Assembly: GCA_027492205.1 (NCBI GenBank)
Contig: JAOZFN010000009.1
Location: forward strand, 64,001-128,000
Direction: 5' to 3'
Length of the DNA stretch: 64,000 nt
From: Thermoproteota archaeon
GTDB lineage: Archaea > Korarchaeota > Korarchaeia > Korarchaeales > Korarchaeaceae
The notes beneath the pieces are model-generated. The model saw nothing but the letters and a program-made list of their open reading frames with translations, made no database searches and had not been told where the DNA came from. Below, in pieces: positions 28,644-33,436 of this stretch. Each line of letters begins with the position of its first letter. Position 1 is the first letter of the stretch. The translations under genes were made by a program, and so were the position numbers.

Positions 28644-29156
28644 ATGGACCGCTACCAGCTGGCCTACCTGCTGCTGGTGCTGGGATTGGCCACCTCCGTC
28701 ATCTACTCGGCGAGGACTAAGGAGGAAGCTCCCCCGGCGGTCAGCGAGGACCGCCTCCCCGTCAGCGGGGGGGATGCTGTCAGACTGACATACGAGACTG
28801 GGGAGGTCGTCGAGCTGTGGCTCAGGGAAGAGGAGGGTGGGGCTGGCCGACTCACAATCGCAGTGAGGGCGCACAAGGGCTCGCTCGTTGAGGCTGTGCG
28901 CGCAAACCTCACCGGAAGTTTCAGCTGGCTCGGGCTGTCGACCATGAGACCTCTGGAGGGGAGGCTCTACGTCAACGAGTCTCTTGGAGTCTACGAGTTT
29001 GCCCTAGAGGGGATAGGGGTCTCGGGGGCCGACGGCCTGGCGGTCGACTTCCTGCTGATCCCGCCGGGCCGGGTGTCAATCGAGCTGGAGGTGGACGTCA
29101 GGAGAGGGGCCACCCTGAGACACCTCCGGGCGAGCGAGACGCTGGCTCATCCGTGA
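28644..29156 (+). CDS. hypothetical membrane-anchored protein
   Basis: 170 aa ORF with N-terminal TM; TTAATAA TATA-like box about 30 nt upstream. Confidence 0.7.
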   Translation: MDRYQLAYLLLVLGLATSVIYSARTKEEAPPAVSEDRLPVSGGDAVRLTYETGEVVELWLREEEGGAGRLTIAVRAHKGSLVEAVRANLTGSFSWLGLSTMRPLEGRLYVNESLGVYEFALEGIGVSGADGLAVDFLLIPPGRVSIELEVDVRRGATLRHLRASETLAHP

Positions 29157-29159
29157 GAC

Positions 29160-29705
29160 TCACGGCCCCTTGGAGCTGCTCCACAGGCTCTCGGCCAAGA
29201 ACGGGACCAGTGCCATGTAGACTCCATGCTCGTAGAGGTCCGCACGTGAGACGAGGCCTCTAGTGAATATACCGATTGCCCCCTCGGCCCTCTTTACTCC
29301 GCTCCGGCCAACTCTCTCGTCCATTAGCTTCCCCAGCTCGACCCCCTCAAGCATCCTCCTCACGAGGTAGTCAGGGCACTGAAACCACCCACTGGTGCCG
29401 AGCCCAGTCAGCCCGTCCCTGCGGACGATCGCCACGAAGCCGGTGCAGAAGGTCTGCCCGTAGAGTTCGACCAGCGCGCCCTCTATTCCGACTCCGAACT
29501 CCGCCCTTGGGACTTCGCGCAGGCTCTCCCGCGCCCTGTTCAGGGCCCCCACGGGCCCCTCCTCGTTGACCGGCTGAGGGGGGACTCCCGAACTAACCGA
29601 CACGGATACGACCTCCACCGACCCATATGCCCTGGTGAAGGCCCTCCTCACCGCCTCGACCTTAACCGGGTTCTCGGAACCGACGGCCACCACGACCCCT
29701 CGCAT
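29160..29705 (-). CDS. yjjX: non-canonical purine NTP phosphatase (ITP/XTPase)
   Basis: VAVGSENPVKVEAV, SGVPPQP, GALNRA, GVGIEG, GAIGIFT..VSR. Confidence 0.92.
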   Translation of the reverse strand: MRGVVVAVGSENPVKVEAVRRAFTRAYGSVEVVSVSVSSGVPPQPVNEEGPVGALNRARESLREVPRAEFGVGIEGALVELYGQTFCTGFVAIVRRDGLTGLGTSGWFQCPDYLVRRMLEGVELGKLMDERVGRSGVKRAEGAIGIFTRGLVSRADLYEHGVYMALVPFLAESLWSSSKGP

Positions 29706-29774
29706 CGGCCGACTCGCAACCCTGAGACGTTATTATGTAGACCTTTTGAGATCCCCAAGAGCCGGGGGGTCGGT

Positions 29775-30113
29775 TTGCGCAGGGTCCGGTGCCCCAAGTG
29801 CGGGAGGGTCCACGAGATTCCCCCTGATCACCCAGACGGGAGGTTCTTCCTGCCGTGCGGGGAGGATCACGACCTCGTCATCTGGGTGAGCGGCGGCATG
29901 GTGAGAGAGGTGGACGTGGCCGAGTCTGTCTTCGCCAGGGTGGGTTTCGAGCTGATTCCGGAGAGGGCCCCGCTGGCGCCCTCTTGGGTCGACATGGACA
30001 GGGTGAGGGCGCTCCTCTCCGGAAGGGTCAGGCCTAGCTCTGAGGACATAGACGTCCTAATGCTCTTGGAGGAGCTCGGCGTGGTGAGGAGGAAGGCGCG
30101 CGCCGCGACCTGA
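29775..30113 (+). CDS. zinc-ribbon hypothetical protein
   Basis: CPKC ... CGEDH putative Zn ligands; G-rich SD before TTG; first gene of a tightly spaced operon. Confidence 0.7.
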   Translation: MRRVRCPKCGRVHEIPPDHPDGRFFLPCGEDHDLVIWVSGGMVREVDVAESVFARVGFELIPERAPLAPSWVDMDRVRALLSGRVRPSSEDIDVLMLLEELGVVRRKARAAT

Positions 30114-30128
30114 CCAGAGGGAGTCCCG

Positions 30129-31151
30129 TTGTTCGCCCTCTACACGCGGGGCCTGTTCGGGAGGGGGACTTACTCCTCCACGCTCCGACACGCCGGGCTG
30201 GACAAGGGAGAGGTTAGGTCGGCCTCCAGGGAACTCAGGAGCTACGTTGTATACTGGATCTACGCGGCTCTATCCGACTCCGGGCTCCTCAAGGAGATAG
30301 AGGGAAGCTACAGGCGAAGGATGCGCCGGTCAGTTAGGAACCCAGCCCTTCTGGACGCCATCCTCGATCTCCTCCTCGACGCCGAAGTGCTGAGGTCGTA
30401 CGAAGATATATTCTCCTTTGAGGCTGAGCCTGACAGGCCCACTCTGTCAATTTGGTGGCTGAAGAGAGCCCTCACCGGAATGGAGGATAGGTTCAGCCAG
30501 CTCGCGGAAGATGTCAGGTCGGGGGTGAAACCTTCCCAAGACCCAGCGCACACGCTGGCGATGTACGACAACCCACTCACGCTCCTAGAGACGGGGCTCG
30601 CCGTTGAAGGTTTTGGGTTGGGGGCCGACATCAGTGCCCTCCTGCTCCCCTGGTCTGGACTCGGGGAGTACGTCTTCTCACTTAGATCCATCGTGGGCGA
30701 CGTAAGGATCATGGCCGCGGCTCCACCCGGGCTTGAGAGGGTGGTCAGGCTGGCGCTCAGGACAAGGGGGATCTATGAGGGCGGCACGATCACAATCTTC
30801 TCGGCCCGGCCGGAGGTGGCTGGACTGGAGTGCCTGAAGCAGGTGGAGGGAACTGGGACCCCTCCAGAGGCAGCCCTGCTCCTGAACGCGATTCAGTGGT
30901 CTTCATCCCCGGAGGCCGCGGTGCGATCGGCCGTTACCGGAGTGAGGTCTGGGGGGCGGGTCTACATTCTTCAGACGCTGAGATCGAGTGAGAGCCTCCC
31001 AATGGTTATATTGGGTCGGCTGCTCGGGGCTAACCTGCTTCCCACTTGGGAGGAACTGGAGAGGTCCCTCAGGGGGGCGGGCGTGAGGTGGAGGGTCATA
31101 TCGAGGACGGGCAGCGCGGTGGCACTGGAGGTGACCACGGGGGTGAGGTAG
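30129..31151 (+). CDS. hypothetical protein, helical N-terminus plus degenerate class I methyltransferase-like fold
   Basis: LLLPWSGLG at the motif-I position, AALLLNAIQW, GVRSGGRVYI; paralog of the next gene. Confidence 0.7.
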   Translation: MFALYTRGLFGRGTYSSTLRHAGLDKGEVRSASRELRSYVVYWIYAALSDSGLLKEIEGSYRRRMRRSVRNPALLDAILDLLLDAEVLRSYEDIFSFEAEPDRPTLSIWWLKRALTGMEDRFSQLAEDVRSGVKPSQDPAHTLAMYDNPLTLLETGLAVEGFGLGADISALLLPWSGLGEYVFSLRSIVGDVRIMAAAPPGLERVVRLALRTRGIYEGGTITIFSARPEVAGLECLKQVEGTGTPPEAALLLNAIQWSSSPEAAVRSAVTGVRSGGRVYILQTLRSSESLPMVILGRLLGANLLPTWEELERSLRGAGVRWRVISRTGSAVALEVTTGVR

Positions 31152-31167
31152 CCTGTATGGGTCCCTG

Positions 31168-32220
31168 ATGACGGGGGCCGCCCCTGAGCTCGTCGAGGCG
31201 AGGGCCTTCGAGTACGCGGGGATTGAGCCGACGGAGCTGGCGGTCGGGCACGACAGCCTGGTGAAGTCCATAGGATACGAGTGCTATCGTGCCCTCTATG
31301 CGTCTGGCCTCGCTAGGCGAATGGAGGGGGTTAGCCTCTCCAAGCTCAAGGAGGTCTCGGCCTATCCCGAGCTAATGGAGGCCGTGGTAGGGGCCATGGC
31401 AAGGGGAGGATACGTTCGACTTGCCGGCGGGAGGGTTAGCAGGTTCCTAGATCTCACTCCGCCGCCAGAGACGGTTCCCTGGGTGGACCGGATCATGCGC
31501 TCCCTTAGGTCTGCATTCGAGGCCCTTCCCGATCTCCTCATATCCGGAGCCCAACCGAAGCTGGATCGCGAGACGAGGAGGTTGGCCACGCTGGCGATGT
31601 ACGACAACCCCGTAGCTAGATTCCAGTCCGCGCTCGCGCTCCTCGGGATGGGGATGACGGACGCTCAGCTCATCAGGAGATGGGCCGACGTGGGGCTCAT
31701 ACCGGCGACCGTGCTCCTCCCCTGGTCCGGTATCGGGATGGTGGCGGTCGACGCCCTGAGGCTCATCGGAGCCAAGATCGTCGCGGGTGTTCCCCCCGGA
31801 GACCTGCGGGCGGCGCGGCTCGTGGTGTCGACGCTGAAGGCGCCAGAGGCCGGCAGGCTCCGGCTGGTAGAGTCCGACCTCGAATCCTTTGGGCAGAAGG
31901 TACGATCGAGCCCGGGCCTGGTGGAGGGACAGGCCGACGCTGCCGTTCTCATAGACGCGGTTCAGTGGGCTGGGGCCGACTTTGAGGCCCTCATAAAGTC
32001 GCTCGATGGAGTTCTAGCCGAAGAGGCTCCCCTGTTTCTCCTCCAGGCCCTGCAGGAAGGGGACTCGCAGGTTATAGGTATCCTCTATGCCCTCCTCGGG
32101 GGCTCGCTCCCACCCACGAGGGGTGAGCTCGAGTACGCTCTAAAGCTATCCGGCTATCGCTCGCGAGAGCTGATTAAGGGGAGGGGGGTTGTGCTTCTCA
32201 GGGCCAGCAGGAGGGAATAA
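31168..32220 (+). CDS. hypothetical protein, paralog of 30129-31151 (degenerate methyltransferase-like)
   Basis: Shares TLAMYDNP, LLPWSG.G, A.QW, LQ.L and LLG...PT..ELE..L...G with the upstream gene. Confidence 0.7.
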   Translation: MTGAAPELVEARAFEYAGIEPTELAVGHDSLVKSIGYECYRALYASGLARRMEGVSLSKLKEVSAYPELMEAVVGAMARGGYVRLAGGRVSRFLDLTPPPETVPWVDRIMRSLRSAFEALPDLLISGAQPKLDRETRRLATLAMYDNPVARFQSALALLGMGMTDAQLIRRWADVGLIPATVLLPWSGIGMVAVDALRLIGAKIVAGVPPGDLRAARLVVSTLKAPEAGRLRLVESDLESFGQKVRSSPGLVEGQADAAVLIDAVQWAGADFEALIKSLDGVLAEEAPLFLLQALQEGDSQVIGILYALLGGSLPPTRGELEYALKLSGYRSRELIKGRGVVLLRASRRE

Positions 32221-32221
32221 C

Positions 32222-32695
32222 ATGTCCGGGATAGTCAAAAAGAAGGTCGTCCTCGCCGGAAACAGCGGGGTTGGGAAGACGACCCTGGCCAAGAGGCTCA
32301 CAGGCAGGTACACCGAGGACACTAGGATGACGGTCGGGGTCGAGTTCTTCACGGTGAGGGAGGGAAACGTGAAGCTAGTGGTGTTTGACTTCGCGGGGCA
32401 GGACAGATTCAGGCCGGTCATCGAGGGGATGGGGAGGGGCGCCAGCATGGTCCTCCTGGTGTTTGACGTGAGCCGTCCGAGCACGCTGTACTCCCTGCGC
32501 GAGTGGGCCACCGTGTCTGGCGCCAGCGACGCGAGGATCCTGCTGGTCGGGAACAAGGTCGACCTCGGCATGAGGGTGGACTTGGAGGAAGTCCGGCGCG
32601 TCGCCGCCGAGCTGGGGGCAGACGAAGTGATTCTGGTGAGTGCCAACACCGGAGAGGGCATAGAGGAGCTGAGGAGAACATTGGTGAGCGCCTAA
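32222..32695 (+). CDS. Ras-superfamily (Rab-like) small GTPase
   Basis: G1 GNSGVGKTT, G2 TVGVEF, G3 DFAGQDRF, G4 GNKVD, G5 SAN; ATG 1 nt after the upstream stop. Confidence 0.93.
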   Translation: MSGIVKKKVVLAGNSGVGKTTLAKRLTGRYTEDTRMTVGVEFFTVREGNVKLVVFDFAGQDRFRPVIEGMGRGASMVLLVFDVSRPSTLYSLREWATVSGASDARILLVGNKVDLGMRVDLEEVRRVAAELGADEVILVSANTGEGIEELRRTLVSA

Positions 32696-32815: not shown

Positions 32816-33436
32816 TCACCTGACTGAACGCTCCCCGAGCTCAAAGGCCCTCCTGTTGACTTCCTGAGTTCCCTCAGGGACGCCCTCCATCAGGGCCTCG
32901 AGCAGCACGCCTCGGTCGATTGGGAGAACGCCGGTCGCGTAAAAGGCGCCGAGAACCACGGAGTTCATCGCCTTCGCAGTTCCCGCCTGAATGGCCAGGT
33001 CTGTGGCGTTGAGAGTGTAGACCTTGGCCCCCATCCCCTTGAGGCCCTCGACGATGGCGTCCACGTCTGGGTACCTGGCCCACCCGGCGTTGACGTCCAT
33101 GGGATACACCGGAACCACGTTCATGACTACGACCCCGCCGGGCCTGAGGTACGTCGAGGATATCCTCAGCCCCTCCAGCGGCTCCAGCGCCATGACGGCG
33201 TCCGCCTCCCCCTCCGGTATCAGAGGGGCGAGGTCGCCCTCCCTGAACATCCTGATGTGGCTGGAGACGGCGCCTCCCCTCATGGCCGCGCCGAACTTCT
33301 CCCCGACCCTGACCCTGTAACCCGACCTGATGGCCGCGTCTGCTATAACGTGAGATATCAGAACGGAACCCTGGCCGCCAACTCCGGCGACCAGCATCTG
33401 GAAGACGGCCCTTCCCGCTCCCACTCTCTCTCCCAT
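32816..33436 (-). CDS. iorB: indolepyruvate:ferredoxin oxidoreductase beta subunit
   Basis: AGVGGQG, GAAMRGGAVSSHIR, LEPLEGLR, NSVVLGA, NRRAF. Confidence 0.9.
   Translation of the reverse strand: MGERVGAGRAVFQMLVAGVGGQGSVLISHVIADAAIRSGYRVRVGEKFGAAMRGGAVSSHIRMFREGDLAPLIPEGEADAVMALEPLEGLRISSTYLRPGGVVVMNVVPVYPMDVNAGWARYPDVDAIVEGLKGMGAKVYTLNATDLAIQAGTAKAMNSVVLGAFYATGVLPIDRGVLLEALMEGVPEGTQEVNRRAFELGERSVR

Follow-up and report, generated by a model that had tools for sequence, protein, structure and literature searches.

How does a Rab-like small guanosine triphosphatase (GTPase) come to lie at the end of a tightly packed archaeal operon, and with what partners might it work? The locus that raises this question lies in a 64,000-nucleotide stretch of DNA from a korarchaeon (GenBank assembly GCA_027492205.1, contig JAOZFN010000009.1, positions 64,001 to 128,000), called the window below. 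It belongs to a genome (G000) of 1.94 Mb in 17 contigs that is 96% complete. The operon spans positions 29775-32695 on the + strand, as read from the list of open reading frames (ORFs) and the raw sequence, and comprises four genes on that strand. A gene for a zinc-ribbon protein of 112 amino acids (aa) (29775-30113, TTG start) is followed by genes for the paralogues A (30129-31151, TTG start, 340 aa) and B (31168-32220, ATG start, 350 aa), and last by that for the Ras-family, Rab-like GTPase (32222-32695, ATG start, 157 aa). We use A and B for the two paralogous proteins, X for their family and Zn for the zinc-ribbon protein. An initial annotation had described four closely spaced genes with a paralogous pair in the middle, and the locus is built in this way. 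Re-reading of the ORFs and the raw sequence gives spacers of 15 nucleotides (nt) between Zn and A, 16 nt between A and B, and 1 nt between B and the GTPase, the start codon of the last lying 1 nt past the stop of B, and A and B are 29% identical over 325 residues (E 3e-31). We conclude that the partner set of this archaeal Rab-like GTPase is real, conserved and apparently undescribed.

By its sequence the GTPase is a genuine Ras/Rab-like protein, apparently competent to switch. It matches the Pfam Ras family (PF00071) with 88.1 bits against a cut-off of 21.6 (E 6.4e-25), and TIGR00231 small_GTP with 71.8 against 42.5 (E 5.3e-20). All five G motifs and the switch-II glutamine reported in the initial annotation can be read directly from the translation, with G1 as GNSGVGKT, the switch-I threonine in MTVGVEF, G3 with its glutamine as DFAGQDRF, G4 as NKVD and G5 as SAN. 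Residues G13, G18, K19, T20, T37, D56, G59, K112, D114 and S140 are invariant in the alignment of these GTPases. The protein ends in TLVSA and contains no cysteine at all, so that the C-terminal prenylation signal is indeed lacking, as had been noted. Its closest solved structures are Rab14, Sec4, Rab25 and Rab11 (E 1.4e-19 and weaker). The nearest sequences outside Korarchaeota are at most 39% identical, and include Asgard proteins labeled Rab family GTPase, protist Rabs and Bacteroidota proteins. The annotation had recognized no Roadblock/MglB regulator in the operon, and we agree; the Roadblock/MglB, longin and V4R families match none of the four operon proteins at E<=0.1. The two Roadblock genes of the genome sit on other contigs.

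The paralogues had been left as proteins of unknown kind, and this can now be revised. A model of B calculated with AlphaFold2 (AF2) from 12 sequences has a predicted local distance difference test score (pLDDT) of 87.8 and a predicted template-modeling score (pTM) of 0.87. The top matches in a Foldseek search of the PDB are O-methyltransferase-family enzymes (3mcz, AlpH, RedM, BchU and DnrK; E 5e-11 and weaker). Alignment by VIA-align to the CurJ C-methyltransferase gives Z 22.3 with 327 of the 350 residues aligned and a root-mean-square deviation of 5.0; other polyketide synthase (PKS) C-methyltransferase domains score Z 20-21, and an O-methyltransferase (OMT) family 2 protein Z 19.1. A language-model look-up for B leads to Methyltransf_2 clusters (0.96). 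A and B are thus predicted to have the class I methyltransferase fold, of the O-/C-methyltransferase type, together with a helical N-terminal domain. The assignment is made confidently for B, from its model, and extended to A because A is its paralogue.

The fold is present, and the motifs expected of a working enzyme are eroded. Motif I reads LLPWSGLG in A and LLPWSGIG in B, and motif II MAAAP and VAGVP, respectively. In place of the histidine conserved in the family, A has Q, and B has Q in the sequence QW. Both proteins thus lack the acidic residue and GxGxG of motif I and the acidic residue of motif II, positions that in this fold generally contact S-adenosylmethionine (SAM). A third paralogue in the same genome, the X protein encoded on contig 15, also lacks both acidic SAM-binding residues. 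No methyltransferase model in Pfam or NCBIfam matches A or B even at E<=0.1. From these motifs we infer that A and B have lost the ability to bind SAM. The histidine is called family-conserved and no more, because the nearest solved methyltransferases have none at this position, and the label "catalytic" was rejected; the best match has a glutamate (E) there.

The genes are not simply decaying. The ratio of nonsynonymous to synonymous substitution rates (dN/dS) measured against two congeners is 0.19-0.21 for A, 0.12-0.27 for B and 0.10-0.13 for the GTPase; these are rough values, since dS is 0.7-2.4 and partly saturated. With dN/dS at 0.12-0.27, A and B are under purifying selection. In a family tree made by a quick method the A and B sequences form sister clades (99), with three genomes in each, on a long common stem of 0.94. 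The duplication is therefore older than the species of the genus, and the A/B pair appears to have evolved fast after it.

The wider X family has a different character. A profile built from relatives of A and B was run against 1.84 billion representative proteins, and retrieved 38 at E<=1e-3, of which 24 reach <=1e-10 and 17 reach <=1e-30. The named members come from Thermoprotei and Thermofilaceae metagenome-assembled genomes (MAGs) and are labeled hypothetical or class I SAM-dependent methyltransferase; more distant relatives include a protein from an Odinarchaeota MAG and one from Thermocladium modestius (P0154, E 1e-5). Several relatives exceed Pfam cut-offs: the X protein of a Thermoproteales MAG (L062) matches Methyltransf_11 at 1.7e-14 and Methyltransf_2 at 28.4 bits, and those of two korarchaeal genomes (G007 and G038) match Methyltransf_25. 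Both acidic residues are kept in 43 of 53 non-identical X sequences, 39 of which also have GxGxG, and the G038 protein has fully canonical motifs. The nine sequences with neither acid all belong to the genus of the window, being the orthologues of A and B and the contig 15 X. All eight A/B sequences have both acids replaced and carry glutamine where 40 other X members keep the conserved histidine. A and B therefore seem to descend from a family of apparently active SAM-dependent methyltransferases. Two complete genomes of another archaeal family have a distant pair of zinc-like and X-like genes with an eroded motif I (L043 1474-2738 and L050 1459-2741). Together with the Thermocladium modestius protein, this pair may provide a cultured organism in which the two-gene core could be studied.

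The remaining partner, Zn, is small and strongly constrained. It consists of an N-terminal beta zinc ribbon (C6, C9, C28 and the region of H-32) and a small three-helix C-terminal domain; the AF2 model (pLDDT 87.9) places strands at 2-50 and helices at 62-100. In the family alignment C6, C9, G22 and P69 are invariant and C28 nearly so. The korarchaeal members have the ribbon pattern CxxC...C..H, and those outside Korarchaeota the full four-cysteine CxxC...CxxC. At 0.03-0.04, its dN/dS is the lowest of the four genes. Foldseek returned no match for Zn at E<=0.001 and VIA none at Z>=5. Its weak structural neighbors are the LysW zinc ribbon (Z 4.7) and winged-helix (wH)/helix-turn-helix (HTH)-like domains (Z<=4), similarities that are only suggestive. 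In Pfam and NCBIfam no model matches Zn, A or B at E<=0.1, apart from zinc-ribbon matches at noise level. We also considered whether Zn is a relative of Trm112, and rejected this. The Trm112 family model (PF03966) finds a gene elsewhere in the genome (C1:33513-33764) and two weak sites, none of them in the operon, and hhalign gives a probability of 3% for Zn against the Trm112 of the genome itself.

Conservation of the neighborhood ties these four genes together. The order Zn, X or A-B, GTPase is found at eight out of eight korarchaeal loci inspected (the window, L009, L010, which is cut upstream, L011, L012, L013, L023 and L031), and in this respect the initial annotation is supported. Since every korarchaeal cassette examined has the same gene order, the arrangement is no chance adjacency. 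Match coordinates fit 11 cassettes in seven korarchaeal genomes. Three further congeneric genomes (G003, G004 and G002, the last cut upstream) share the full Zn-A-B-GTPase order. Contig 15 of the genome of the window carries a second cassette, of three genes, whose Zn is 38%, X about 20-30% and GTPase 46% identical to those of the operon, and a cassette of this type occurs in G003 too. A Zn-X-GTPase cassette is further found in a second genus (G007) and in one of 21 genomes of a third (G038). X is present in seven of the 43 genomes of the phylum, six of which also have Zn, the Zn gene of the seventh being cut by a contig end. Among 301 archaeal genomes sampled a full-length X is found only in those seven, with 27 others matching the methyltransferase core only. 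A full-text literature search, supplements excluded, found no paper on a cassette of zinc-ribbon, methyltransferase and Ras-like GTPase genes, in keeping with the suggestion that it is undescribed.

Outside Korarchaeota the picture changes. The survey took in 38 loci on contigs of genomes and metagenomes, with some redundancy (for example, L063 = L110). Of 26 evaluable loci, 22 have the Zn gene directly upstream of X, but only three of 27 have a Ras-like GTPase downstream, and these three belong to a single Thermoproteales lineage. Small membrane proteins follow the Zn-X pair instead in the metagenomic lineage that is commonest. Because most of these loci keep Zn-X without a GTPase, Zn plus X is the conserved core, to which the GTPase has been added in particular lineages. 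The partners are therefore not "built around" the GTPase, as the operon had been portrayed. In the cassette of the Thermoproteales MAG the stop and start codons overlap. Directly upstream of this cassette (L062 2104-3648) are genes for an MglA/Arf-like GTPase (186 aa), a Roadblock protein (Robl_LC7, 7e-14) and a cysteine-containing protein of 177 aa that has no Pfam match, so that this cluster contains two different small GTPases. At another locus (L115) an Arf-like GTPase gene lies just upstream of Zn-X.

A tree of 49 rows places 11 of the Zn-X-linked GTPases in a single clade (support 97/95), including those of the Thermoproteales lineage and those of both cassette paralogues in the genus of the window. 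The sister group of this clade (95/75) comprises Asgard, eukaryotic and Bacteroidota rows together with the korarchaeal GTPases linked to V4R-like or longin-like genes described below. Because the set contains no Ras, Rho, Ran or Rup references, "Rab-like" denotes similarity and not membership. The Rab-like character first noticed stands as a similarity; the tree adds that the cassette GTPases occupy a clade of their own in archaea, beside the sampled Asgard and eukaryotic Rabs and not inside them. The relevance to the origin of eukaryotic Rab signaling that had been proposed is therefore indirect.

How might these proteins work? We propose that the products of the four genes make up a single switch module in the cytosol. 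It would have started as a pair, found widely among thermophilic Thermoproteota, of a zinc-ribbon protein and a SAM-dependent methyltransferase, X, with a helical/winged-helix N-terminal domain. A gene for a Ras/Rab-like GTPase would have been added directly downstream, translationally coupled, both in Korarchaeota and in one Thermoproteales lineage, and the GTP/GDP state presumably gates the activity of a physical complex of Zn and the methyltransferase, with control running in that direction. In the genus of the window the methyltransferase gene would then have been duplicated to give A and B. Enzymes of this fold class normally dimerize through the N-terminal domain, and for this reason A and B would most likely form a heterodimer. 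They are most likely pseudo-enzymes with a retained binding role, because the acids and the conserved histidine have been lost while purifying selection persists. The GTPase would act through the pair together with Zn, as its effector or scaffold, the highly constrained Zn being the adaptor. That a GTPase switch was recruited onto a Zn-protein/methyltransferase module, here having a pseudo-enzyme A/B pair as effector or scaffold, is the explanation we prefer, and we would put it at about an even chance of being correct. The more specific proposal that an A/B pseudo-enzyme heterodimer with Zn directly controls or reads the nucleotide state of the Rab-like GTPase is doubtful, though worth entertaining. 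If true, A/B plus Zn would represent a structurally new class of regulator or effector for small GTPases, and A and B might couple a metabolite or a former substrate to the switch.

A number of observations weigh against recruitment of the switch onto such a module. At 24 of the 27 evaluable loci outside Korarchaeota there is no GTPase, and one X (L063) has neither Zn nor GTPase; as the Zn-X pair mostly occurs without a GTPase it must be able to work alone, and the link could be loose. In the free tree the GTPase of G038 is placed apart from the cassette clade, although a tree joining all cassette GTPases including that of G038 is not rejected (p-AU 0.156, from the approximately unbiased test, for a group named after the tree had been seen). 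Motif erosion is also seen in lineages without the GTPase (L064, P0142, P0144, P0146 and the L043/L050 pair), and is thus not specific to GTPase coupling. The motif I glycines persist in A and B (SGLG and SGIG), and some methyltransferases bind SAM through unusual motifs. Finally, the heterodimer is drawn from the behavior of O-methyltransferases, while the structures that match best over the full length are PKS C-methyltransferase domains.

Zn and A/B might instead be a dedicated set of guanine nucleotide exchange factor (GEF), GTPase-activating protein (GAP) and/or effector for the GTPase; for example, Zn could be the GAP and an A/B dimer the GEF platform. This is close to what the initial annotation had envisaged, and the strict conservation of the neighborhood in Korarchaeota would fit it, as would the absence of a Roadblock or longin regulator from the operon, which calls for another regulator. 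The zinc domain moreover has a homologue in the zinc/DUF742-like protein encoded by a second type of korarchaeal GTPase cassette, which contains a V4R-like gene (hhalign 96%, E 2e-9, 54 columns), and therefore recurs beside GTPases; only the N-terminal zinc domains of the two proteins align. Four of 17 members of the Zn family match the ArfGap zinc finger, very weakly and at noise level (best E 0.042, far below threshold), and no known GEF or GAP fold is found among the Pfam, Foldseek and VIA matches. The Zn-X pair predates the GTPase and lacks it at most loci, and most X proteins resemble working enzymes, with full motifs in 39 of 53, which is not what an origin as a dedicated GEF or GAP would lead one to expect. 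We consider this explanation unlikely.

It is similarly unlikely, in our judgment, that A and/or B are active methyltransferases with a non-canonical SAM site, for which the GTPase would be the substrate or a factor conferring specificity or activation, and Zn a Trm112-like activator. Such an arrangement has precedent in the small zinc proteins that activate class I methyltransferases, of which Trm112 is one (PMC6144793, PMC3152332). The canonical methyltransferases among the relatives, the retained motif I glycines and the purifying selection on A and B all speak in its favor. Set against these are the replacement of the SAM-contacting acids and the family-conserved histidine in all eight A/B sequences, the absence of any Pfam methyltransferase match to A or B even at E 0.1, and the unrelatedness of Zn to Trm112 noted above. 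The simplest alternative is mere co-transcription, with no functional link between the GTPase and the pair of zinc protein and methyltransferase-like protein, and here one can point to the absence of the GTPase from most Zn-X pairs elsewhere. Yet all three gene types have been duplicated together within a genome, the cassette GTPases form their own clade, and the order with its tight spacing or overlap is maintained across three korarchaeal genera and a Thermoproteales MAG, and we think co-transcription alone quite improbable. The cassette is, in short, inherited as a unit. A role as a defense system was also considered and rejected; PADLOC gave only a P-loop-level match for the GTPase and a generic methyltransferase-core match (mad2) for a relative.

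The boundaries of the operon are well defined by its neighbors. Upstream is a divergent ITPase-family gene (29160-29705, - strand; PF01931, 3.4e-51), and downstream a convergent gene on the - strand that ends at 32816, taken from the ORF list. The divergent intergenic region (29706-29774, + strand) is a candidate archaeal promoter, read from the sequence. It contains an A/T-rich element, TTATTATG, at 29730-29737 (+), a candidate promoter element, and a run of G at 29764-29769 (+) directly 5' of the TTG start of the Zn gene. From general archaeal promoter architecture we presume that these act as TATA box and Shine-Dalgarno (SD) sequence, respectively. SD-like purine runs precede the start codons of A (GAGGGAG) and the GTPase (AGGAGGG). 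A scan for promoters and terminators of bacterial type gave no matches, but its model is bacterial and does not apply to archaea. None of the nine sequencing runs listed for the lineage (shares 0.05-0.12) is of RNA. Beyond the ITPase-family gene, a gene at 28644-29156 (+) has a 170-aa product whose N-terminus is hydrophobic and which matches nothing in Pfam or NCBIfam; its counterpart occupies the same position in G003, with 67% identity.

Small GTPases are found in other gene clusters of Korarchaeota. The genome of the window encodes a third Ras-family GTPase (Pfam Ras 3.7e-32), on contig 15 at about 64.3-65.8 kb (L013 2315-3802). It is 238 aa long with an N-terminal extension of about 75 aa, and its gene overlaps the end of a gene for a 146-aa protein, which in turn follows a small membrane protein and has a weak, below-cut-off match (E 0.0018) to the first longin domain of FUZ/MON1/HPS1. 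By eye, a similar set of longin-like N-terminus, membrane protein and extended GTPase occurs in two genomes of another korarchaeal genus (L014 4130-6693 and L015 3164-5134). The V4R cassette was seen in G007 (L016 4311-7219) and on contig 36 of G004 (L163 661-3006). It has a gene for a protein like the FAD (flavin adenine dinucleotide)-dependent geranylgeranyl reductases, one for a zinc-ribbon protein with a sub-threshold DUF742/wHTH-like C-terminus and one for a V4R-like protein (2.5e-4, sub-threshold). In G007 a Ras-family GTPase (1e-25) follows. The genome of the window has two Roadblock and eight V4R matches, five of the latter over cut-off. On its contig 17 (L144 1447-2356) genes for a Roadblock protein (124 aa) and a V4R-domain protein (172 aa) stand immediately next to each other in this order, and there is no GTPase within 3.2 kb around this pair.

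Archaeal Ras/Rab-like GTPases are known almost only as sequences, and here the genome points to partners. The four proteins are small, soluble and thermophilic, and so suited to reconstitution and structural work. The natural variants run from an apparently active enzyme (in G038 and the Thermoproteales MAG) to the duplicated, probable pseudo-enzymes of the window, and this gradient offers, ready-made, a test case for the possible conversion of an enzyme module into a GTPase effector or regulator. With longin-linked GTPase genes in the same genome and a V4R-linked one in G007, Korarchaeota may therefore be tractable, and may offer a view of pre-eukaryotic GTPase wiring outside Asgard archaea.

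The cassette may be compared with several known systems. Like MglA-MglB and the actinobacterial conservons (CvnA-D, with GTPase, Roadblock and DUF742 components) it combines a small GTPase with small non-enzymatic partners in a tight operon. Unlike them it has no Roadblock protein and no histidine kinase, Zn has no match to DUF742 (PF05331), the GTPase is Ras/Rup-like with DxxGQ and not MglA-like, and the middle partners have the methyltransferase fold. There is a loose link to the conservons through the zinc protein of the V4R cassette, which scores 1.1e-5 and 25.7 bits against DUF742, sub-threshold for a cut-off of 27. Another comparison is with Group 2 of the Rup family (Ras superfamily GTPases of unknown function in prokaryotes), surveyed in 2015 by Wuichet and Sogaard-Andersen. 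According to that survey (PMC4316618), these are archaeal single-domain proteins with eukaryote-like G1-G5, often multicopy and not coupled to MglB, and those of Crenarchaeota lack conserved neighbors; the one korarchaeal genome then available held only an MglA-type GTPase, and the paper contains no mention of methyltransferases. The GTPase of the window differs from the group as described there in having a conserved partner set.

ArvABC (OapABC) of Haloferax, a small GTPase with DUF2073 and zinc-ribbon DUF2072 proteins, is needed for the formation of extracellular vesicles (PMC10927574). It resembles the cassette as an archaeal three-gene operon, conserved across lineages, of GTPase, zinc-ribbon protein and a third protein. 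Here, however, the gene order is reversed and the third partner is a methyltransferase-fold pair, and ArvA is Arf-like whereas the GTPase of the window scores best on Ras (88 vs 48 bits). Identity with ArvABC was rejected, since OapB (PF09846) and OapC (PF09845) have no matches in the genome (E<=0.1) and the Haloferax controls were positive. Asgard and eukaryotic Rabs share the Rab-like sequence, and the best PDB matches are Rabs, yet the GTPase of the window has no prenylation cysteine and falls in a separate archaeal clade. Their regulators are longin, Roadblock and TRAPP/V4R proteins, and the operon partners are none of these. The korarchaeal GTPase genes are also operonic, while those of the Asgard archaeon MK-D1 as a rule reportedly do not share operons with such partners (PMC10933270), and in Asgard archaea the genome therefore does not reveal the partners.

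Two further systems bring a methyltransferase fold into the comparison. Mtq2-Trm112 acts on eRF1 bound to the GTPase eRF3. The Trm112 holoenzymes (PMC6144793, PMC3152332, PMC5372719) likewise consist of a small zinc-binding protein and a class I methyltransferase. Zn is not homologous to Trm112 and has an extra helical C-terminal domain, and A and B lack the SAM-binding residues. SAMTOR is a SAM sensor of methyltransferase fold that acts on GATOR1-KICSTOR, upstream of the Rag GTPases (PMC10883374). In SAMTOR, and on the proposed reading in A and B, a methyltransferase fold would serve as a non-catalytic signaling part in a small-GTPase pathway, an analogy with no claim of homology. SAMTOR differs in that it binds SAM, for which A and B have lost the usual binding residues. 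If A/B and Zn do directly control or read the nucleotide state of the GTPase, the cassette would be an archaeal counterpart, in logic and not in ancestry, of SAMTOR-GATOR-Rag.

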